A stretch of 13,440 nucleotides of DNA, taken from UHGV virus genome UHGV-1946153; one strand, given 5' to 3'. The notes below the pieces were generated by a model that was not told where the DNA came from, did not search any database, and saw only the letters and a program-made list of their open reading frames with translations. Below, piece by piece: positions 1,774 through 12,104 of this stretch. The position numbers and the translations under genes were made by a program. How positions within the stretch are numbered: position 1 is the stretch's first letter; each line of letters starts with the position of its first letter. This DNA comes from a virus.

Positions 1774-2058
1774 TTATTCAGTGCCGATATTTACCTTTAT
1801 CGCGTATACCTTTACCGGTTTATCACCGAAGTGCGGATGTGTGATTGTCTTCACTTCATATCCGTCATACGGAACATCAACTCTGCGGCTGGAATCGTCG
1901 CGCTTCGGATATCCCTTTGTGATAATCAGGCGGTCATGCTTACGGTTAACGAGGCGCTTTTTCCAGTAGTCATTACACAGGCGATACTCTTCCGTTTTCT
2001 CTCCGCGAATCATGGCATCGAAGTATTCACCTTTAACGGCAAGTTGCAGGTTAGCCAC
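1774..2058 (-). CDS. ASCH/PUA-like domain protein, about 94 aa
   Basis: GTG start at 2056-2058 preceded by AAGGAG with a 6-nt spacer; the longer track ORF (to 2142) lacks an RBS. N-terminal motif FDAMIRGEKTEEYR fits the ASCH-domain signature (I/M-x-G-x-K-T-x-E-x-R). Confidence 0.6.
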   Translation of the reverse strand: MANLQLAVKGEYFDAMIRGEKTEEYRLCNDYWKKRLVNRKHDRLIITKGYPKRDDSSRRVDVPYDGYEVKTITHPHFGDKPVKVYAIKVNIGTE

Positions 2059-2674
2059 GGTTAACTCCTTGCTGTGTGGCGTCGAGTAATAAATCCCACA
2101 ACCGCTGAGAGCAATTTCCGCATGTACAGCGTTGACCCACAACGTTTATCGCGTTGCTGATTTCCGGCGTTACCTGTTTAGGAACCATAACCCAACCATC
2201 CGGAGTTACCGGAGAGTTGCCAAACAGCTTGTTCAACTTGTAAGTCTGGCTTACAGGTTTGACACCGTGAAGCATGGTGGCGCGGCAAGCATCCTCTACG
2301 CCTTTAACTGCATCTGCGCAGTAGTTATAGCGATTGCATTCCACTAACTTCTGCTTGAGATTTTCAATTGCCTGCGCGACATCAGCCTGTATTACCGGCG
2401 CTGGCGGTGCCATGTAAAGCGGAGTGACGTGTACGACAGAACCAAGTGTCTCATGTATCCGAACCCATGTATCTTTCTCTGCACAGTCACGGTAAATAGT
2501 AGAGGCTGAGTCCTGACCGTCTTTTGTGATTGTGACCTGCCATGCCACCGGTTCAGCTTCCAGCGAGGCTAACGCTATTTCATAAGCCCGGCGCTCAATA
2601 TTGTCTCGCACATCCAGGCTGCCTATGCGCTCTTTGATTTCTTTAATCATTTCTTTGTCGGTAAAAGTGCTCAT
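2051..2674 (-). CDS. Hypothetical protein, 207 aa, with shared N-terminal IALASLEAEPVAW module and Cys-rich C-terminus
   Basis: ATG at 2672-2674 preceded by AAGGAG (rc of 2681-2686). The motif YEIALASLEAEPVAW is shared with the adjacent upstream gene. C-terminal CTCGNCSQRLW may bind metal. Confidence 0.65.
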   Translation of the reverse strand: MSTFTDKEMIKEIKERIGSLDVRDNIERRAYEIALASLEAEPVAWQVTITKDGQDSASTIYRDCAEKDTWVRIHETLGSVVHVTPLYMAPPAPVIQADVAQAIENLKQKLVECNRYNYCADAVKGVEDACRATMLHGVKPVSQTYKLNKLFGNSPVTPDGWVMVPKQVTPEISNAINVVGQRCTCGNCSQRLWDLLLDATQQGVNRG

Positions 2675-2675
2675 A

Positions 2676-3122
2676 TCAATCTCCTTTGGTACCAATGTTT
2701 ACAGCCTGGCAAGCCTCTTTGAGTACCCAATCAACAGCGTCTTTCCATGCTCCGGTTTCGACTGGCGGATTTTCACGTTTAACCTGTTCATAGAAACGCA
2801 CGGCTTTAACCAGTCCTTCTGATGTCACCGGGACTGGCGGGGCAGTGAATAAGGCCTGAATCTCATAGCTCGGCCTGTCGTTGCAATCCTCTTTTGTCGG
2901 TACATATTTCCAGTCACCAACCCACGGCTCCCCCTGAGAGTCCGTAACGCCTTTTTTCACGTAGCGATATCGCCACGCTACAGGCTCCGCTTCCAGCGAT
3001 GCCAGCGCAATCCGTGCCAGCTCTTCCGCTTCTTCTGCTGGCAGTACAACGTTGCTACCAGGTCCGTATGTTTCGCGCCACTCCTTGATTGTCAGCAGTC
3101 GCTCTTTGGTAATAGTGGTCAT
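2676..3122 (-). CDS. Hypothetical protein, 148 aa, with shared N-terminal IALASLEAEPVAW module
   Basis: ATG at 3120-3122 preceded by AAAGGAGAG. Its stop is 1 nt from the next start. Contains ARIALASLEAEPVAW, paralogous to the neighbouring gene. Confidence 0.65.
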   Translation of the reverse strand: MTTITKERLLTIKEWRETYGPGSNVVLPAEEAEELARIALASLEAEPVAWRYRYVKKGVTDSQGEPWVGDWKYVPTKEDCNDRPSYEIQALFTAPPVPVTSEGLVKAVRFYEQVKRENPPVETGAWKDAVDWVLKEACQAVNIGTKGD

Positions 3123-3123
3123 C

Positions 3124-3735
3124 TCACTCTCCTTTGATGCGAATACCAGCGGCGCGTGGCACATTAACTTCCACGATGCGCACTGTTGGTTTGTACATCT
3201 CAATCGCTGTCAGCCAGTCAGCTCCTGTCATGCGCTTTTCCGCATCGCCATTAGTCCACTGAACCGGTACACCAATAGCCTTCATCGCGATTTCTATTTC
3301 CCCGGCAATGGCGCTTTTTCCGCAACCAGTAAAACCAGATACAACGACCAGAACTTCACCTTTGGCTGGTTTTATTTCCCGTGCTTCCAGTTCTGCAATG
3401 CGCTTACTTCCATCCGAGATAACGCNNNNNNNNNNNNNNNNNTGCTCGTTGAGTTTTGATTTTGCCAACTCCAGTTGTTTTGTTAGTTCTGCAATACGAC
3501 AAACATCGTTGATACGCGTTTCCTCTAATGCGTTGCTCTCATCCAGTAGCGCCAGCACGGTTTCTGGTCCGGCCAGAAATTTGAAGGCGTTGAGGGCATC
3601 AATATCAACACCGCTATCTTTAAGTTCCTGTTCGCTTATCAGATCATCATCAACTGGCAACATTAACAGGCGTTCCATTGCTGGAGTTGCACGTTCTGCC
3701 GCCTCACGTAGTGCCTGGTAATTAATTTCGCTCAC
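3124..3735 (-). CDS. Hypothetical protein, about 203 aa, possibly Ead/Ea22-like; interrupted by an N-run
   Basis: GTG start at 3733-3735 with AAGGAGG 7 nt upstream, overlapping the upstream stop (GTGA). Acidic helical N-terminal half. C-terminal half contains a Walker-A-like GFTGCGKS. The family name is recalled from memory, not verified. Frame continuity across the 17-N gap is assumed. Confidence 0.6.
   Translation of the reverse strand: MSEINYQALREAAERATPAMERLLMLPVDDDLISEQELKDSGVDIDALNAFKFLAGPETVLALLDESNALEETRINDVCRIAELTKQLELAKSKLNEXXXXXXXVISDGSKRIAELEAREIKPAKGEVLVVVSGFTGCGKSAIAGEIEIAMKAIGVPVQWTNGDAEKRMTGADWLTAIEMYKPTVRIVEVNVPRAAGIRIKGE
3426..3442. other. Assembly gap / masked bases (17 N)
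   Basis: Run of N characters inside the CDS at 3124-3735. Confidence 0.99.
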
Positions 3736-4468: not shown

Positions 4469-4746
4469 GATTTACTCTCCACTAACTGGTCAATAGCCAT
4501 GCTAAGTGACATACCTAAAGTTTCGATATGCTGCTGAATATCCTGTAGCGTCTGCGCCTGAGATAACAGGATTTCACGGTTGCATAACTCTTTAACCAGA
4601 TGCTCAAACTTGCTGTAATAACCGATACGACTTAGTGTTTCTTTCCCTGCATTCTCGCCTTCTTTGATAATTCCTCTTTCACTAAGAATCAGGTCGTGTT
4701 TGGTTCCGGTAATAACGTATTTTCCGAGGTCGATGTTTAGCTTCAT
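4465..4746 (-). CDS. Hypothetical protein, 93 aa
   Basis: Intact ORF with ATG at 4744-4746 and GGAG 9 nt upstream. Confidence 0.6.
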
Positions 4747-4762
4747 TGTTAATTACTCCATG

Positions 4763-5077
4763 TTAATTTATTCGTATGCCTGCTCTTTCTTCATCGAGTT
4801 TTTTTAGCTTGTATCGCATAGCTCTTACTGAATAAATTGAGCGGCAGGTTGCAATTGCTATTTCTTCTGCGGAGAACTTACCGAAAAGTGATACTTCGGC
4901 TCTTGTCCAGCGTCTTCCACGAAGTCGGCTAACAATGTCAGCGCCAATCCTTGTTGCTTTTGCCATTACTGCTTTTTCAGTCCTTTCCAGTTTTTCAGCG
5001 ATAACTTGAACTGGCATTGTCGCCGCTACTTCGCGCAAGAAATCGACTTCCCATTTCTCCCATGGAGTCTTTTTCAT
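4763..5077 (-). CDS. Hypothetical protein, 104 aa, with internal tandem repeat (possible DNA-binding)
   Basis: ATG at 5075-5077. Two similar segments (WEKWEVDFLREVA...VIAEKLERTEKAV and WTRAEVSLFGKFSAEEIAIATCRSIYSVRAM) suggest a duplicated helix-turn-helix-like unit; this is inference. Confidence 0.6.
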   Translation of the reverse strand: MKKTPWEKWEVDFLREVAATMPVQVIAEKLERTEKAVMAKATRIGADIVSRLRGRRWTRAEVSLFGKFSAEEIAIATCRSIYSVRAMRYKLKKLDEERAGIRIN

Positions 5078-5088
5078 AGTCGATACCG

Positions 5089-5571
5089 TTATTTGATAAG
5101 AAGTGAAGGTTTCCCAACCTTGAGTTGAGCGCCGGGGATATTTATTCCTGCTTTTAGTTGGTGCTTGATTGCCAACTTGTCGGCTTTAATTGTCGTTTCG
5201 AACTCAACGTATTCAGGAGGAAGGGCGCTTGAGTCGATGATTTCTACAGTTTCTGACGGTTTGCGGATTGTTACCTGGTGAATACCTGCTCTAATCTTTT
5301 TCTTGCCAACCATTTCAAGCGATGACGCTATATATGATTTGATGCTGTCAATCTTATTTTGAATTACTGCGGCTCGCTCATTCAGCGACTTTGCCTCTTC
5401 CTTGAGGCGTTCAGCATAACCAGATTCATTTTTAATGACGGAAAGAAGTTGCTCTATTTTATCGGTAAATTCTCCTTCCATGCCTTCTATTGTGTCAGCA
5501 ATCATCTCTGGTTCTAAATCTGAATCCATCAATTTTGCGTATTCATTGGCAATTTCATACAGTTTGCTCAC
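5089..5571 (-). CDS. Siphovirus Gp157-like protein (recombination-module accessory), about 160 aa
   Basis: GTG start at 5569-5571 with GGAGG and a 6-nt spacer; the track ORF starts at TTG 5577. Acidic helical N-terminus then ...GKKKIRAGIHQVTIRKPSETVEIID...LPPEYV...GAQLK resembles the Gp157 family as recalled. Lies immediately downstream of recT. Confidence 0.65.
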   Translation of the reverse strand: MSKLYEIANEYAKLMDSDLEPEMIADTIEGMEGEFTDKIEQLLSVIKNESGYAERLKEEAKSLNERAAVIQNKIDSIKSYIASSLEMVGKKKIRAGIHQVTIRKPSETVEIIDSSALPPEYVEFETTIKADKLAIKHQLKAGINIPGAQLKVGKPSLLIK

Positions 5572-6457
5572 TGGCAACCTCCAGTTTCGCTTTGCATTCT
5601 GCGTAAATGGCTTGTACGTTCTGCTGCAATTTCATTCCAGATGTCAGGCGATATGCTTCTGCAAAATATCGCTTCAAATCATCCATGTTTTCTGCCTGAG
5701 CCATTTCATCGCAAAGAAGTTGTGCTTTATCCATTATTTCCTGCTGGCGTTTCCGTTCATCTTCGCGGATATCTTCCTCTGATTTGTGCGGCATAACTGG
5801 TTCCTGATGCATACCTTCATCTTCGTTAAGAAGGTGAATGGCATTATCCAGTCGCTGGGCTTTAGGCCAGTATTTGCTGGCGCGTTTAACTATTGTTTTA
5901 CGCGCCATCTCTTCCCAGAATGTTTTCCACGGTCCATTCTTTGCCTTGCTCGTTGCTTCCACAGCTTTAATTTCTGCCAGACTCATTTCTTCAGTCAGGT
6001 AGTCACCATCTGCTGTTTTAACCGTGCAATAACCTCCAACAATAGAGCCTCGCTCACCAAATGCGTTGTATTTGTGGGTTGGTGCTGAATCAAGGCCATT
6101 TGATTCATAGGTGTCGTTTGAGTACACCAGTTTGCATTGCCCCCACTTAATTGATCCTGTCGATTGCGCAAGATGAAGTAATCCCATGTAACTGATATCA
6201 AGGCACACCATGCCGTCGCGAGGAACCAGATAAGCCAGTTTGCTGGCCGGGTTTAAGGTGATGCCGATCGCCGCAACATTGATGATGGCGTTCTGTGCGC
6301 TGGTTGGATTTGCCAGTGCTGTTTTAGCCAGGTAATCGTTTTTCTGGAAATACTGAATTGCAAACTGGCTTTCCTTAGCCCATGTCACCGTCTGTTCAGT
6401 CAATGCTCCGCAGAATAACTGCTCCTGCTGTTTAACGAATTCAACGATATTGCTCAT
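5555..6457 (-). CDS. recT: RecT-family single-strand annealing recombinase, 300 aa
   Basis: Motif GPWKTFWEEMARKTIVKRASKYWP matches the RecT signature of the Rac prophage protein (GPW...HWEEMAKKT...R..KYLP). RBS GGAG 7 nt before the ATG at 6455-6457; ATGA overlap with the upstream gene. Confidence 0.9.
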   Translation of the reverse strand: MSNIVEFVKQQEQLFCGALTEQTVTWAKESQFAIQYFQKNDYLAKTALANPTSAQNAIINVAAIGITLNPASKLAYLVPRDGMVCLDISYMGLLHLAQSTGSIKWGQCKLVYSNDTYESNGLDSAPTHKYNAFGERGSIVGGYCTVKTADGDYLTEEMSLAEIKAVEATSKAKNGPWKTFWEEMARKTIVKRASKYWPKAQRLDNAIHLLNEDEGMHQEPVMPHKSEEDIREDERKRQQEIMDKAQLLCDEMAQAENMDDLKRYFAEAYRLTSGMKLQQNVQAIYAECKAKLEVASEQTV

Positions 6458-6765
6458 GCAGCTTCTCCAAAAATGTGTCTGCGTTTGAATATTGCGAAGG
6501 CATATTCAGCCTTAACTCTTTCGGTTATTGCATCCCAGAACCATTCAGCGGCTTTTTCCTGATAGTTACAGTCATCATCTTCCAGCCAGTCGATAGCGTC
6601 CTTAGTGTGTTCATCTGGTTTATATGAGCGAAGCATTTCGCTTATTGGGTCGCAACGTTTGCAGAGACGATCAACTTCACTGTTGATTCGTTCGTAATCT
6701 TCATCAGTAAAACTTGCGATTATTTGCGATATTTCACGCTTATCATTCAGAGTCAGAATCATCAT
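6454..6765 (-). CDS. Hypothetical protein, 103 aa
   Basis: ATGATG start at 6760-6765 with CAGGAG upstream. Acidic, Trp-rich. Sits where lambdoid phages place host-nuclease inhibitors, but no similarity was recognised. Confidence 0.6.
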   Translation of the reverse strand: MMILTLNDKREISQIIASFTDEDYERINSEVDRLCKRCDPISEMLRSYKPDEHTKDAIDWLEDDDCNYQEKAAEWFWDAITERVKAEYAFAIFKRRHIFGEAA

Positions 6766-6850
6766 CTTTCTCCTGTTCTTTGTGCTGATTGAGCATTTTG
6801 TTCATCTGACGAATGAATTCTTCGTCTGACCAGTTATCTGTAAAACTCAT
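6743..6850 (-). CDS. Possible small ORF, 35 aa (not in the ORF track)
   Basis: Hand-translated: MSFTDNWSDEEFIRQMNKMLNQHKEQEKDDDSDSE. Its start overlaps the stop of the upstream 50-aa ORF (ATGA at 6847-6850). Weak RBS and it overlaps the next gene by about 23 nt. Confidence 0.2.
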   Translation of the reverse strand: MSFTDNWSDEEFIRQMNKMLNQHKEQEKDDDSDSE

Positions 6851-6999
6851 TTCCTGCGATACCACGGAAGGTTGATAGCTGATTTCATCGCTTTATTTGC
6901 TTCAAACCACATTTTTGAATCACCAATAAATCTGGCTATTACTGCTTTGTTCTGTGCAGCACGAAGCATCTGGTGATTAATGGCTATTTCATTGCGCAT
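6847..6999 (-). CDS. Small protein, 50 aa, possibly Kil-like (not in the ORF track)
   Basis: Hand-translated: MRNEIAINHQMLRAAQNKAVIARFIGDSKMWFEANKAMKSAINLPWYRRK. RBS GAGG 7 nt upstream. It sits just upstream of the recombination genes, like lambda kil, and the FIGDxKM segment resembles lambda Kil as recalled from memory. Confidence 0.4.
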   Translation of the reverse strand: MRNEIAINHQMLRAAQNKAVIARFIGDSKMWFEANKAMKSAINLPWYRRK

Positions 7000-7038
7000 A
7001 ATAAGACCTCAACTCTTTTCCATCCGTCACGTAATTTA

Positions 7039-7048
7039 NNNNNNNNNN
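7039..7048. other. Assembly gap / masked bases (10 N)
   Basis: Run of N characters in the intergenic region. Confidence 0.99.
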
Positions 7049-7146: not shown

Positions 7147-8115
7147 TTAGTAGGTTATTTTTGTTGCGAATACTTCGCCTTTTACGATGGCTGTTATGAT
7201 ATTTTTAGCAACATCTTCTGGTGCGCCAACCTTGATAAGGTCAGCAAGTATTTTGTTATTTACTTCTTTCCGGTGAGCTTTATCCTTTGCTCTACGCTCT
7301 TCTTCGTCCTTGATTCTTTTTTCTTCTGCTATTCTGGCTTGCTCTTTTGCTTCAGCCTCGCGCCGGATTCGTTCAGCCTCCTCCTGTGCTTTTCGGCGTT
7401 CTGCTTCAATTGCCGCCTGCTTTTCTCTTTCAGCTCGTTCTGCTGCCTCTTTTGCTTCGCGCTGTGCTCGTTGCTCGGCTTCAATGCGTTCACGCTCTGC
7501 ACGTTCCGCTGCGGCCTTAGCTTCTGCTTCTCGCCTTGCTGCTGCTTCAATTTCGGCTTTTGCCTTTGCTTCGGCTTCAGCTCTGGCTTTCTCTTCAGCT
7601 TCTCTTTGTAAGCGTTCTTCATGCTCTCGCTTTTCCTGCTCCGCTTTGAGTCTTGCCTCTTCTCTTTGGCGGTCAAATTCGCGATCCATCAAAATCGCTA
7701 TTTCATGGTCAGACTCAATTTGCTTTGCGAGAGCTTCAGCTGCTGCCTTAGCTTCTTCTTCGGCTTTAATCCGCGCCTGTTCTTCCTCATAATCAGTAAG
7801 AGGCTGGCGCGCCTTGGCTTTCAGTTCATCAAGGCGATCGCGCACTGTCTTGCGGTTGGCATCAATTAGCTTTGGAATTTCCTTCAGTTCAGCAACAAGG
7901 TCTTTGCCAAGACCATCGAGATATGTTTTCGTCTGCGCAACTTTATACGCCAGAGAAGCGATCTCCTTTCTGCCCTTTGCCGTTGTGATATCAGGCACAA
8001 AGGACATAACTTCACGTTCAACCTTTTGAAGGATTTCTTCAATCTGGTCGGCAGACTGAAATACAGTCATTGCATTTGCTTTTTCAATAACAACTAAATC
8101 TGTTACTTCACTCAT
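7147..8115 (-). CDS. Hypothetical protein, 322 aa, with a long Glu/Ala/Lys/Arg-rich helical region
   Basis: ATG at 8113-8115 with GGAGG 4 nt upstream. A globular N-terminal domain is followed by about 170 residues of EAKR-rich sequence typical of a single alpha-helix or coiled coil, then a short C-terminal domain. Confidence 0.75.
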   Translation of the reverse strand: MSEVTDLVVIEKANAMTVFQSADQIEEILQKVEREVMSFVPDITTAKGRKEIASLAYKVAQTKTYLDGLGKDLVAELKEIPKLIDANRKTVRDRLDELKAKARQPLTDYEEEQARIKAEEEAKAAAEALAKQIESDHEIAILMDREFDRQREEARLKAEQEKREHEERLQREAEEKARAEAEAKAKAEIEAAARREAEAKAAAERAERERIEAEQRAQREAKEAAERAEREKQAAIEAERRKAQEEAERIRREAEAKEQARIAEEKRIKDEEERRAKDKAHRKEVNNKILADLIKVGAPEDVAKNIITAIVKGEVFATKITY

Positions 8116-8151: not shown

Positions 8152-8225
8152 NNNNNNNNNNNNNNNNNNNNNNNNNNNNNNNNNNNNNNNNNNNNNNNNN
8201 NNNNNNNNNNNNNNNNNNNNNNNNN
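8152..8225. other. Assembly gap / masked bases (74 N)
   Basis: Run of N characters between the 322-aa gene and the AT-rich cassette. Confidence 0.99.
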
Positions 8226-11065: not shown

Positions 11066-11227
11066 ATGACAAAACGTCGTAAGAAATACCAGGAAAAAGA
11101 AGAGATTCGACACCCTGATTCACCTGAGGGATTAGTGGTAGCCGCAGCAAATAACAGGGCGTTCGCAGAGCGCCTTGTTGGTGTTTACAGACTAGCCAAA
11201 GCAGGAGTGAAACATGGGCGTCGTTAA
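11066..11227 (+). CDS. Small basic hypothetical protein, 53 aa, between cII and the replication gene (not in the ORF track)
   Basis: Hand-translated: MTKRRKKYQEKEEIRHPDSPEGLVVAAANNRAFAERLVGVYRLAKAGVKHGRR. RBS AGGAG 5 nt upstream. Conflicts with the alternative initiator start at 11214. Confidence 0.35.
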   Translation: MTKRRKKYQEKEEIRHPDSPEGLVVAAANNRAFAERLVGVYRLAKAGVKHGRR

Positions 11228-11275
11228 GTTAGCTGATTACAGGCATAACCCTGTACAACATCAGGAGGCATCCAG

Positions 11276-12104
11276 TATGGGGTATGTCTCTATACACCGC
11301 CAGTTTATGGACAGCAGGCTCTATAAGGACTCTCAGGCAGTACATCTTTGGCTTCACTTAATCCTCAAGGCTAATCACGAATCTACTGTCGTCAATACGG
11401 ATATCGGTCCGATAACTGTTGATCGCGGTCAGATGATAACTGGACGCCCGTCGCTGGTCAGAGAAACATTCATCCCCGACAACAAAGTTCGGAGCTTATT
11501 ACGGACTTTTGAGTCGAAAGGGATGCTTAATATTTGCTCGATGGGGAAGAAATTTAGCCTGTTTACAATCGTTAAATATGACGATTTTCAGGCAAAAAAT
11601 TGTCCAACGGTTGTCCAACGGTTGTCCAACGCAAACACCAGTAATGGCGCGGCTCTCAGCGGAGATTGTCCAACGGTTGTCCAACGGTTGTCCATAAACA
11701 ATAATATAAATAATATCTCTAATACTGACGTATTAGAGAGTGCCACAGCAGACAAAAAGTCTGACAAGAAAAAACCTTCCGTTAGCTGTCAGGATGTTGT
11801 CGATGCTTACCACGAAATCCTTCCTGAAGCGCCAAGAATCCGCGCACTGAATGACAAGCGTAAAAACCAGATCCGAACGTTCTGGCGCAAAGCCGGAGTG
11901 ATAACCCGCCAGCTTGACGGGCATGGGTTCACGATGCAGGACTGGAGAAATTATTTGAGCTACGTAGGCGAAAATTGCCGATGGATGTTCGAAGAACGCC
12001 CAAACCATCAACGCGGAACCGTCTGGCACAAAAAGGGATTTGATTTCCTGCTTAACGACAATACCTACCTGAAAGTTCGTGAGGGTGAACACGATGACCG
12101 ATAA
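11276..12104 (+). CDS. Replication initiator (lambda O / P22 gene 18 analogue) with the origin embedded in the gene
   Basis: ORF contains the iteron array and AT-rich region and is followed by an overlapping helicase gene. Start chosen at ATG 11276 (AGGAGG, 8-nt spacer); alternative ATG at 11214 (AGGAG, 6-nt spacer) gives the 296-aa track ORF. No direct sequence similarity to lambda O was recognised; the call rests on synteny and iterons. Confidence 0.8.
11600..11698. repeat. Origin iterons: six 11-bp direct repeats (TTGTCCAACGG) in two triplets
   Basis: Repeats at 11600-11610, 11611-11621, 11622-11632, a 33-bp spacer, then 11666-11676, 11677-11687 and a degenerate 11688-11698. Lies inside the initiator CDS, as in ori-lambda. 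Confidence 0.8.
11716..11739. repeat. Perfect 10-bp inverted repeat in the AT-rich region next to the iterons
   Basis: TCTCTAATAC-tgac-GTATTAGAGA inside AT-rich sequence (about 11694-11740). Candidate DNA-unwinding element or binding site. Confidence 0.5.

Follow-up and report, generated by a model that had tools for sequence, protein, structure and literature searches.

Gene content of the recombination cluster

The 13,440-nt stretch of virus genome UHGV-1946153 analyzed here (the window) contains the Rec module of an E. coli lambdoid prophage, located in its early-left operon. The recombination cluster lies on the minus strand throughout and has at its core three tightly overlapping genes for an acidic protein of 103 aa (6454-6765), a RecT-family protein of 300 aa (5555-6457) and a Gp157-family protein of 160 aa (5089-5571). 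The original prediction, in which RecT was flanked by an acidic 103-aa protein upstream and a Gp157-like protein downstream, is borne out by position and strand of the ORFs and by matches to PF03837 and PF05565. Transcription proceeds from an Arf-like ORF of 40 aa (6743-6865) through the genes for the 103-aa protein, RecT and Gp157 to that for an Abc1-like helix-turn-helix protein (4763-5077). The genes overlap or are spaced by at most 16 nt, all module ORFs are intact, and between positions 4700 and 7000 the minus strand has no predicted terminator.

With 115.8 bits against PF03837 (E=2.5e-33, gathering threshold 24), 76.8 bits against TIGR00616 (cutoff 52.65) and an E value of 9e-92 against phrog_148, the 300-aa protein is a member of the RecT family. 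Judged from its sequence it is a putative single-strand annealing protein of the type termed 'SAP-4' by Zheng et al. (Zheng, Casjens, Davidson, Amundsen & Smith, Genome Res 2025), like those of HK140 and phi80, and its residues 4-217 share 57% identity with phi80 Rec.

Within the ORF spanning positions 5089-5577, the GTG at 5571 is the probable true start of gp157, because homologs are likewise 160 aa long and a GGAGG stands 7 nt before the GTG. The gene shares 17 nt with the recT stop region. Its product is a member of the Gp157 family, matching PF05565 over profile positions 1-162 (E=2.5e-38, 132 bits, gathering threshold 28.6) as well as phrog_253, which is labelled 'Mu Gam-like end protection' (E=1e-54), and even the founding gp157 of Streptococcus thermophilus phage SFi18 is reached from it by tblastn (29% identity, E=3e-9). 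In the AF2 model (pLDDT 78) two helices, one of them long (residues 21-88), take up 88 of the 160 residues and are followed by a small beta domain of about 70 residues. A nuclease function of Gp157 itself was considered and ruled out on the basis of size and this predicted architecture.

At the head of the recombination cluster, in the position taken by Gam in lambda, is the gene for the acidic, helical 103-aa protein (pI 4.65, 24 D+E versus 15 K+R), which belongs to phrog_3486 ('unknown function') and has no match in Pfam or NCBIfam. Its family comprises 54 representative clusters among 1.84 billion proteins. Related loci were searched with a narrower alignment, the broad one being without a sufficiently conserved stretch, and in all of those in which the ORF was resolved (51 of 56) the gene is located immediately upstream of recombination genes. 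It heads modules of three types, namely RecT with Gp157, RecT with Exo, and a RecE-like exonuclease with a protein of unknown function, and is translationally coupled to whichever recombination gene comes next. In the window its stop codon overlaps the recT start (ATGA), and the Shine-Dalgarno sequence of recT is encoded by the conserved C-terminal G-E-A-A of the protein. The AF2 models are unreliable (one of five at a pLDDT of 77, the others at 46-50), and a Foldseek comparison with the PDB returned nothing at E<2.7.

Three further ORFs, absent from the original prediction, were noted in the same region. The basic helix-turn-helix protein of 104 aa is of the P22 Abc1/Mu gp9 type: phrog_323 is matched by this protein (6.4e-20), by P22 Abc1 (1.3e-23) and by Mu gp9 (5.2e-29). 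Pairwise blastp and tblastn comparisons with P22 Abc1 were not significant, so that the link between the two is one of shared PHROG membership and not of pairwise similarity. The homolog in phage Gally is annotated as Abc1-like, and Mu gp9 adjoins Mu gam just as the phrog_323 gene adjoins gp157 in the window. The acidic 40-aa ORF (phrog_17766, phrog_2123) resembles Sf6 gp30 (blastp E=4.6e-11 in a small database of 11 sequences) and HK97 gp42.1. Its similarity to P22 Arf is weak (E=0.003 in the same database) and its PHROG matches differ from Arf's phrog_2445; it is found in most of 80 close loci. Finally, a coiled-coil protein of 322 aa (7147-8115, minus strand) is a homolog of phi80 Agt/Mog ('modifier of Gam'), with 51% identity over the full length (E=3e-65) and common membership in phrog_1376; an ORF of phage D3 shares 55% identity with its N-terminal domain. 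Between the gene and the core cluster lie cIII and kil, and the protein is a possible accessory of the module.

Absence of an exonuclease gene

The original prediction further held that RecT lacks a cognate exonuclease and proposed an HMM search for YqaJ and PD-(D/E)xK signatures. This search agrees with the prediction: no match to YqaJ, PD-(D/E)xK, RecE, DnaQ or HNH families was obtained with Pfam and PHROG profiles for the larger ORFs on the minus strand, from xis to N. Among the window ORFs scanned there is neither an adjacent gene for an exonuclease of the YqaJ/lambda Exo or RecE/DUF3799 type, as would be present in a two-component system of annealing protein and exonuclease, nor a member of the SSB family, and Abc2, lambda Gam and GamL were not found in the window either. 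A nuclease concealed by sequence gaps, which the original prediction had named as a possible refutation, did not materialize. The three runs of N are too small to hide a gene (10-74 nt) and the region is colinear with a close relative. The run of 17 nt (3426-3442) falls within an in-frame Ead/Ea22-like ORF, that of 10 nt (7039-7048) is located inside cIII according to an alignment with the E. coli E1 prophage (99.5% identity), and the stretch around that of 74 nt (8152-8225) aligns with the same prophage at 171 versus 171 nt.

HK140 and mEpX1 share the module, with about 93% identical DNA, and further copies are carried by Gally, Kapi1, 683R2, Louie and Dewey. Its gene order is kept in more than 120 loci, among which sequence divergence goes as far down as about 60% in Gp157 and 36% in the 103-aa protein. 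We inspected 136 related loci (1.38 Mb) and found an Exo or RecE homolog in none of the 123 that bear gp157, that is Gp157 and exonucleases of the Exo/RecE type are mutually exclusive in this set. The search was able to detect such enzymes, since sister loci gave Exo (PF09588, E=2.9e-30) and RecE-like proteins (PF12684, E=4.3e-26). No exonuclease is annotated in the HK140, mEpX1 and Gally genomes, all of which are complete.

The gp157 gene directly follows recT and thus occupies the slot that is taken by exo in phi80-like phages. This alternation is accompanied by a change in RecT. Gp157-linked and Exo-linked RecT proteins are 52% identical in their cores but only 15-23% identical in their last 80 or so residues; these C-terminal tails vary with the downstream partner, and those found with Gp157 bear no relation to the ones found with Exo. 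In a mosaic locus (L092) the RecT tail keeps company with Gp157. The Gam position is variable as well: in sister phages a lambda Gam-like protein or phi80 GamL stands in place of the 103-aa protein. A bona fide lambda Gam-like gene accompanies Gp157 in 9-10 of 80 loci, and it replaces the 103-aa gene in Dewey and in two of the 80 loci.

Possible functions of Gp157 and the 103-aa protein

From its sequence, Gp157 is predicted to be a distant, Mu Gam/Ku-like DNA-end-binding protein, and we regard this assignment as probable. Apart from the PHROG label, it is suggested by relatives of the protein, five of 22 of which match PF07352 (Phage_Mu_Gam), in all individually resolved cases below the gathering score of 28.3 bits. 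Four of them (P0137, P0140, P0146 and P0147) reach 14-19 bits (E=0.0011-0.045), and the match is colinear, residues 34-159 corresponding to profile positions 13-147. These sub-threshold matches fit the predicted architecture, in which a beta domain comes after a long helix. The window protein itself does not match PF07352 at E<=10, and Mu Gam proteins do not match PF05565. Comparisons with Mu Gam by hhalign, using either the single sequence or a shallow profile of 53 sequences, were not significant (probability 0.4-1.3%), and a search of PDB sequences with the Gp157 profile yielded nothing relevant. Fold searches retrieved only coiled coils from the PDB and only other Gp157 proteins from BFVD, none of them named Gam, and the two families are kept in separate PHROGs (253 and 491).

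For the 103-aa family, similarity to phi80 GamL (PF28165/NF033500) was not detectable by hhalign (probability 0.5%). The same method aligned it with lambda Gam (phrog_259) over a mere 26 residues (probability 25%, E=7.7e-4), a local match that does not place it in the lambda Gam family. Weak local matches to lambda Gam and P22 Arf at E values around 1e-3, compared with 0.1-0.8 for reversed-sequence controls, serve as no more than leads, given that designed helical-repeat proteins of the ARM/HEAT-like type are matched by this profile too. Accordingly graded is the outcome for the proposal in the original prediction that the small neighbors of RecT act as nuclease inhibitors or recombination mediators. 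For Gp157 it is supported by the PHROG label and by classification of the HK140 copy as an anti-RecBCD protein of the MuGam type (Zheng et al., 2025); for the 103-aa protein what speaks for it is the Gam position.

We consider it reasonably probable that the window carries a nuclease-less module of the HK140 type that works in the style of P22, with DNA ends being protected and host nucleases being relied upon. Gp157, possibly a dimeric coiled coil with a small beta domain, would bind the ends of phage dsDNA as a distant relative of Mu Gam/Ku and would thereby shield them from RecBCD and other end-acting nucleases. The 103-aa protein in the Gam position could be a second antagonist of a host nuclease or could assist the recombination proteins as a cofactor. 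Host functions or replication would provide single-stranded DNA, which RecT would then anneal. The 'P22' functional class of the lambdoid survey, to which HK140 belongs, is defined by the presence of an annealing protein and an anti-RecBCD protein and by the absence of nuclease and SSB (Zheng et al., 2025). In the window, the annealing protein is present and nuclease and SSB genes are absent; the anti-RecBCD component depends on the MuGam-type classification of Gp157 in that survey, our own homology scores being below threshold. Further observations count against the proposed mode of action. If Gp157 served solely against RecBCD, it would be redundant with the lambda Gam-like protein in the 9-10 loci that encode both. 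Moreover, same-strand Chi sites give a mixed picture (four in HK140 and six in mEpX1, above composition expectation, none in Gally and ENT47670), and the excess in HK140 and mEpX1 is not expected in phages that fully block RecBCD.

More tentatively, the 103-aa protein (gp42 in HK140) may stand for a class of Rec-module proteins that has gone unrecognised and operates in the Gam position, be it as one more type of inhibitor of a host nuclease (RecBCD) or as a general cofactor, and, linked to this, Gp157 may be a nuclease-free substitute for Exo that acts via the C-terminal tail of RecT. Reading Gp157 as chiefly a partner of RecT in the place of Exo rather than as a blocker of RecBCD is compatible with end binding, but as its main function we deem it rather unlikely. 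Gp157 would then bind the C-terminal domain of RecT and either load RecT at DNA ends or recruit a host exonuclease or helicase, in a way similar to that in which P22 Abc2 redirects RecBCD. The Exo-binding part of lambda Beta reportedly is its C-terminal domain. In favor of such a partnership, gp157 takes the exo slot of phi80 and of ENT47670-type modules that have the same 103-aa gene or another Gam-position gene, the two never occur together in the 136 loci, loci with a lambda Gam-like gene show a gam-recT-gp157 arrangement that parallels gam-bet-exo of lambda, recT and gp157 overlap, and RecT tails diverge along with the partner, as also seen in the mosaic locus. However, a RecT tail and the next gene may co-travel merely through adjacency, and the location of gp157 upstream of Erf or Sak4 genes in Firmicutes phages argues against an adaptor that is specific for RecT.

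Returning to the nuclease-less module as the preferred explanation, it could fail if a cognate exonuclease had been missed, either as a novel fold in an ORF of unknown function, for instance in the 103-aa protein or in proteins of 197, 175 or 214 aa, or as a gene elsewhere in the prophage. Several window ORFs are indeed without assigned function, a new fold would be beyond the reach of HMM searches, and the window covers only about one third of a prophage. Against this stand the lack of any nuclease-family match for the scanned ORFs, the mostly helical structures predicted for Gp157 and the 103-aa protein, which are below the size of a PD-(D/E)xK core, the small, colinear gaps, and the complete genomes of HK140, mEpX1 and Gally, in which only HNH and RusA endonucleases are annotated, outside the module. 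In an independent survey, HK140 is likewise scored as nuclease-less (Zheng et al., 2025). We therefore hold a missed exonuclease to be very improbable. Just as little is to be expected from the notion of Gp157 as a protein of phage resistance or superinfection exclusion whose linkage to recT is due to chance alone. It goes back to the Pfam text, to relatives labelled 'Resistance protein' in BFVD and nr, and to the S. thermophilus phage gp157 that gave the family its name. The original resistance phenotype, however, is said to have been ascribed to a non-coding origin fragment and not to the gp157 protein, and the gene has a conserved position within recombination modules of phages from Gram-negative and Gram-positive hosts and is translationally coupled to recT. 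Least probable of all is a decaying, non-functional remnant left behind by exonuclease loss, given that the ORFs are intact, that gene order has withstood the divergence described above, and that HK140, mEpX1, Gally, Kapi1, Louie and Dewey are isolated phages deposited as complete genomes.

Comparison with known recombination systems

The layout was originally taken to be unusual, a view that cannot be upheld: of the 246 lambdoid Rec modules surveyed, 84 are without a nuclease, among them HK140, which is described as "SAP-4 + MuGam, no nuclease" (Zheng et al., 2025). A nuclease-less combination of RecT with a Mu Gam-like protein is common and already catalogued, and the finding as such is therefore real but ordinary and adds little. 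New here are the finding that Gp157 never occurs alongside Exo/RecE in 136 loci, the location of gp157 in the exo slot, the matching change in the RecT tail, the placement of the 103-aa protein and the resemblances of neighboring ORFs to Abc1, Arf and Mog. The alternation of Gp157 and Exo together with the change in the RecT tail offers a testable handle on the supply of single-stranded DNA in nuclease-less annealing systems, and the 103-aa proteins, a well-defined family, are candidates for a role as a new antagonist of RecBCD or as a cofactor of recombination. Proteins of this kind attract practical interest in recombineering and as antibiotic potentiators, as demonstrated with lambda Gam, and details such as these may be useful for the study or engineering of phage recombination systems.

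HK140 is the closest counterpart. Its gp42 (103-aa protein), gp41 (RecT), gp40 (Gp157) and gp39 (104-aa protein) correspond to the window gene for gene and in the same order; the cores do not differ in any essential way and the window additionally has the upstream kil, the Arf-like ORF and the Mog homolog. The genes for the 103-aa and 104-aa proteins are not named as members of the HK140 module in the accessible part of the survey (Zheng et al., 2025). The phi80 cluster mog-gamL-rec-exo follows the same logic of gene order and is related through the RecT core and Mog, but it has a lambda-type Exo in the slot of Gp157, GamL in that of the 103-aa protein, and a RecT tail of unrelated sequence. 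Lambda Red (gam-bet-exo) and Rac RecET also have an annealing protein of the RecT/Redbeta superfamily and a small protein upstream in an early-left operon, whereas their defining 5'-3' exonuclease partner is missing in the window. Mu Gam/Ku (PF07352) resembles Gp157 in size, in the predicted helix-then-beta architecture, in the PHROG label and in having a phrog_323 neighbor, and differs from it by the sub-threshold Pfam scores, the different PHROG and the lack of a reciprocal match or support from fold searches.

The P22 arf-erf-abc1-abc2 cluster is likewise nuclease-less, with the annealing protein standing between small accessory proteins, an Arf-like acidic peptide upstream and an Abc1-type helix-turn-helix protein downstream, and it occupies the same operon slot between kil and DUF2737. 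Its annealing protein is Erf instead of RecT, Abc2 has no counterpart found in the window, and P22 in turn has none of Gp157 or the 103-aa protein (the Gally annotation reads 'absent in P22'). In Firmicutes phages, RecT typically adjoins a gene for a YqaJ-like or DUF3799 exonuclease, while erf-ssb/sak4 modules have gp157, Mu gam-like, DUF1351 or DUF2483 genes at their flanks (Steczkiewicz et al., 2021). The gp157 and Mu gam-like genes alternate at one position beside these exonuclease-less Erf/Sak4 modules, and analogous functions have been inferred for the two (Steczkiewicz et al., 2021). There, gp157 precedes the annealing protein gene, whereas it follows recT in the window, but in both cases Gp157 goes together with annealing proteins that are not accompanied by a phage exonuclease.

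The recombination cluster and its surroundings

The 13.4-kb window corresponds to the immunity and early region of a lambdoid E. coli prophage. Pfam and PHROG scans place int, xis, a series of ea-type ORFs, the recombination genes, kil, cIII, an N-like gene and a cI-type repressor gene on the minus strand, and cro, cII and replication genes on the plus strand. The top chromosomal match is a prophage of E. coli strain E1 (99.5% identity across 83% of the window). In the O-like replication protein (11214-12104, plus strand) the peptide CPTVVQRLSN is present twice, which suggests origin iterons within the gene itself, as known from lambda. Two neighbouring minus-strand ORFs of 214 and 175 aa (2051-3203) have an N-terminal segment in common (…IALASLEAEPVAW…), each match phrog_660, phrog_60 and phrog_5117, and look like tandem paralogous ea-region genes without assigned function.

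RecT is encoded at 5555-6457 on the minus strand (PF03837, E=2.5e-33; TIGR00616 above cutoff; phrog_148, 9e-92). As originally noted, it is flanked upstream by a gene for an acidic 103-aa protein and downstream by one for a Gp157-like protein. Genes in the cluster overlap by 4-23 nt or are otherwise separated by gaps of at most 16 nt, and from 4700 to 7000 no terminator was predicted on the minus strand. The claim that a cognate exonuclease is missing from the neighbourhood likewise holds: no exonuclease or endonuclease family was returned when the larger ORFs of the minus strand, from xis to N, were scanned against Pfam and PHROG. Nor is a gene hidden in the masked sequence near the module, since the N runs measure just 17, 10 and 74 nt; the first falls within an in-frame Ead/Ea22-like ORF, the second within cIII according to the E1 prophage alignment, and across the third this prophage aligns 171 versus 171 nt with 97/97 identity at unmasked positions. 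The same block occurs with 93-95% DNA identity in phages 683R2, Louie, Kapi1, HK140, mEpX1 and Gally. The annotations of the complete HK140, mEpX1 and Gally genomes list no exonuclease; HNH and RusA endonucleases are the only listed nucleases, and NinB/Orf is also present, in the nin region.

Directly downstream of the Gp157 gene, a basic 104-aa Abc1-like protein is encoded (4763-5077, minus strand; phrog_323, 6.4e-20). P22 Abc1 (1.3e-23) and Mu gp9 (5.2e-29) also score against this family, pairwise BLAST between the 104-aa protein and P22 Abc1 is not significant, and the Gally homolog was annotated as Abc1-like by its authors. Mu gp9, a small helix-turn-helix protein, directly adjoins Mu gam (L007, the Mu locus, 5482-6325), mirroring the adjacency seen here; by analogy, a functional pairing of phrog_323-type helix-turn-helix proteins with Mu Gam/Gp157-type proteins is possible. 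Between kil and the 103-aa gene lies a minus-strand ORF for a 40-aa Arf-like protein (Sf6 gp30, E=4.6e-11; P22 Arf weakly). Further upstream, a 322-aa coiled-coil protein (7147-8115, minus strand) matches phi80 Agt/Mog, the 'modifier/antitoxin of GamL', over its full length (51% identity, E=3e-65); GamL itself is absent from the window. Some phage records label this protein 'TolA'. A Pseudomonas phage D3 ORF shares 55% identity with its N-terminal domain, and the near-identical Sf6 gp33 carries an annotation of similarity to D3 Orf53, whose gene was reported to license Gabija targeting (PMC12407980).

Gp157 and the 103-aa protein

The Gp157 ORF (5089-5577, minus strand) matches PF05565 (Sipho_Gp157) end to end with 132 bits at a cutoff of 28.6, and the founding gp157 of S. 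thermophilus phage was reached from it by tblastn. The GTG at 5571 is the likely start, because homologs comprise 160 aa and a GGAGG lies upstream of it. An AF2 model (pLDDT 78) shows two helices, one at the N terminus and one of 68 residues, together with a small beta domain. A distant homology to Mu Gam is probable, albeit not established. Phrog_253 (Gp157) and phrog_491 (Mu Gam) bear one common PHROG label, and 5 of 22 Gp157 relatives scanned matched PF07352; in the four resolved individually, residues 34-159 aligned with positions 13-147 (E=0.0011-0.045, below the gathering score). The relation is not reciprocal, hhalign of shallow Gp157 and Mu Gam profiles was colinear and not significant, and fold searches yielded nothing informative on this point. 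Zheng et al. (Genome Res 2025) likewise class the HK140 copy with Mu Gam, a protein summarized in the literature as binding DNA ends and blocking RecBCD loading. In Firmicutes phages, gp157 and Mu gam-like genes alternate beside Erf and Sak4 modules (Steczkiewicz et al. 2021).

The 103-aa protein (minus strand, pI 4.65) belongs to phrog_3486, a family without assigned function, and matches nothing in Pfam or NCBIfam. The family is small (54 representative clusters when 1.84 billion proteins are grouped at 50% identity), and its members are helical, acidic and about 100 aa long. The stretch GGAGAAGCTGCATGA (6454-6470, minus strand) codes for G-E-A-A-stop, provides a Shine-Dalgarno sequence and overlaps the recT start codon (ATGA). 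The conserved C-terminal E-A/V-A may therefore persist at least partly because the DNA carries these elements, as a translational-coupling signal. The family profile found nothing in GamL. It gave a 26-residue local match to lambda Gam with the motif DDDxx[FY]QE[KR]AAE (probability 25%, E=7.7e-4) and a match to P22 Arf (probability 21%, E=1.1e-3), with reversed-sequence controls at E=0.1-0.8; designed helical-repeat proteins were matched as well. As the AF2 model is also unreliable and without PDB match, the argument for a Gam-like role is one of position and not of homology.

Exchange of genes around RecT

Related loci were collected from IMG/VR, 80 via Gp157 and 56 via diverse relatives of the 103-aa protein. 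The order 103-aa protein, RecT, Gp157, Abc1-like protein is almost invariant in the former; in two of them and in phage Dewey a different small ORF and a lambda Gam-like gene (phrog_259) replace the Arf-like and 103-aa genes at unchanged position. In all resolved loci of the second set (51/56) the 103-aa gene lies directly upstream of recombination genes, which form three types of module. In the first, Gp157 comes after a RecT of ~301 aa; in the second, a 226-aa homolog of lambda Exo (PF09588, E=2.9e-30) comes after a RecT of 309 aa; the third has a 273-aa RecE-type nuclease (PF12684, E=4.3e-26; phrog_412, 'exonuclease VIII') and, behind it, a protein of 186-198 aa from phrog_11517 without assigned function (loci L121:7130-7690, L122:7127-7696, L124:7115-7696 and L140:6249-6845). 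The latter protein has no match in Pfam or NCBIfam and could be a single-strand annealing protein that has escaped recognition, since it occupies the slot expected for one. Among 80 loci found via the lambda Gam-like protein, 9-10 combine it with RecT and Gp157 and five with RecT and Exo. Two positions around this RecT thus vary independently: the upstream one holds lambda Gam-like protein, GamL or the 103-aa protein, the downstream one Exo or Gp157. Profile comparison of phi80 gamL (L224:1116-1397) with the Dewey gene (L005:3230-3655) shows homology of GamL residues 1-26 to residues 44-72 of the lambda Gam-like protein (probability 95.5%, E=1.6e-8), in agreement with the published statement that GamL and lambda Gam share a fold despite highly divergent sequences. 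In phage Louie (L002:3869-4336) and in locus L142 an HNH endonuclease gene sits between recT and gp157 in an otherwise identical module; it looks like a mobile insertion and not like a module component.

Possible mechanism and relation to known systems

We consider it reasonably probable that the genes form a P22-style Rec module working without its own nuclease. Gp157 would bind and shield phage DNA ends, the 103-aa protein, in the Gam position, would oppose a host nuclease or act as a cofactor, and RecT would anneal single-stranded DNA supplied by host functions or replication. The main alternative, which is compatible with this scheme and which we regard as rather unlikely, is that Gp157 serves primarily as a RecT partner replacing Exo and acts through the RecT tail. 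In its favour, Gp157 occupies the position of Exo, co-occurs with true Gam and excludes Exo and RecE: tblastn across 136 loci (1.38 Mb) detected no Exo or RecE homolog in the 123 Gp157-bearing loci, and Gp157 is missing from all 12 loci that carry such a nuclease. The RecT tail also co-varies. Cores of Gp157-linked and Exo-linked RecT are 52% identical (phi80 Rec and the core of the RecT studied here, 57%) and their final ~80 residues just 15-23%, and in the mosaic locus L092 a tail of the Gp157-linked type accompanies Gp157. The Chi sites of two relatives may speak against a role restricted to RecBCD inhibition, as they are unexpected if the module blocks RecBCD fully, but the picture across genomes is mixed: HK140 has four and mEpX1 six on the same strand, mostly in virion genes, where ~0.6 are expected from composition, whereas Gally, ENT47670 (a phage with an Exo-type module) and P22 have none.

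The premise that RecT is normally found beside an exonuclease is true for some lineages only. It is typical of Firmicutes phages (Steczkiewicz et al. 2021), but of the 246 Rec modules that Zheng, Casjens, Davidson, Amundsen and Smith (Genome Res 2025) report from their survey of 325 lambdoid phages, 84 have no nuclease, HK140, with SAP-4 and MuGam, providing an example, and 46 phages fall into a P22 functional class with anti-RecBCD function and annealing protein and with neither nuclease nor SSB. The nuclease-less RecT layout is thus common and already described; the original observation stands, and its interpretation is partly supported. What remains of interest is the uncharacterised 103-aa protein and the alternation of Gp157 with Exo. 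With its Abc1-like and Arf-like neighbours, the cluster parallels the P22 order kil-arf-erf-abc1-abc2, although Abc2 is absent, RecT takes the place of Erf, and Gp157 and the 103-aa protein are added; in phi80 the order is mog, gamL, rec, exo.
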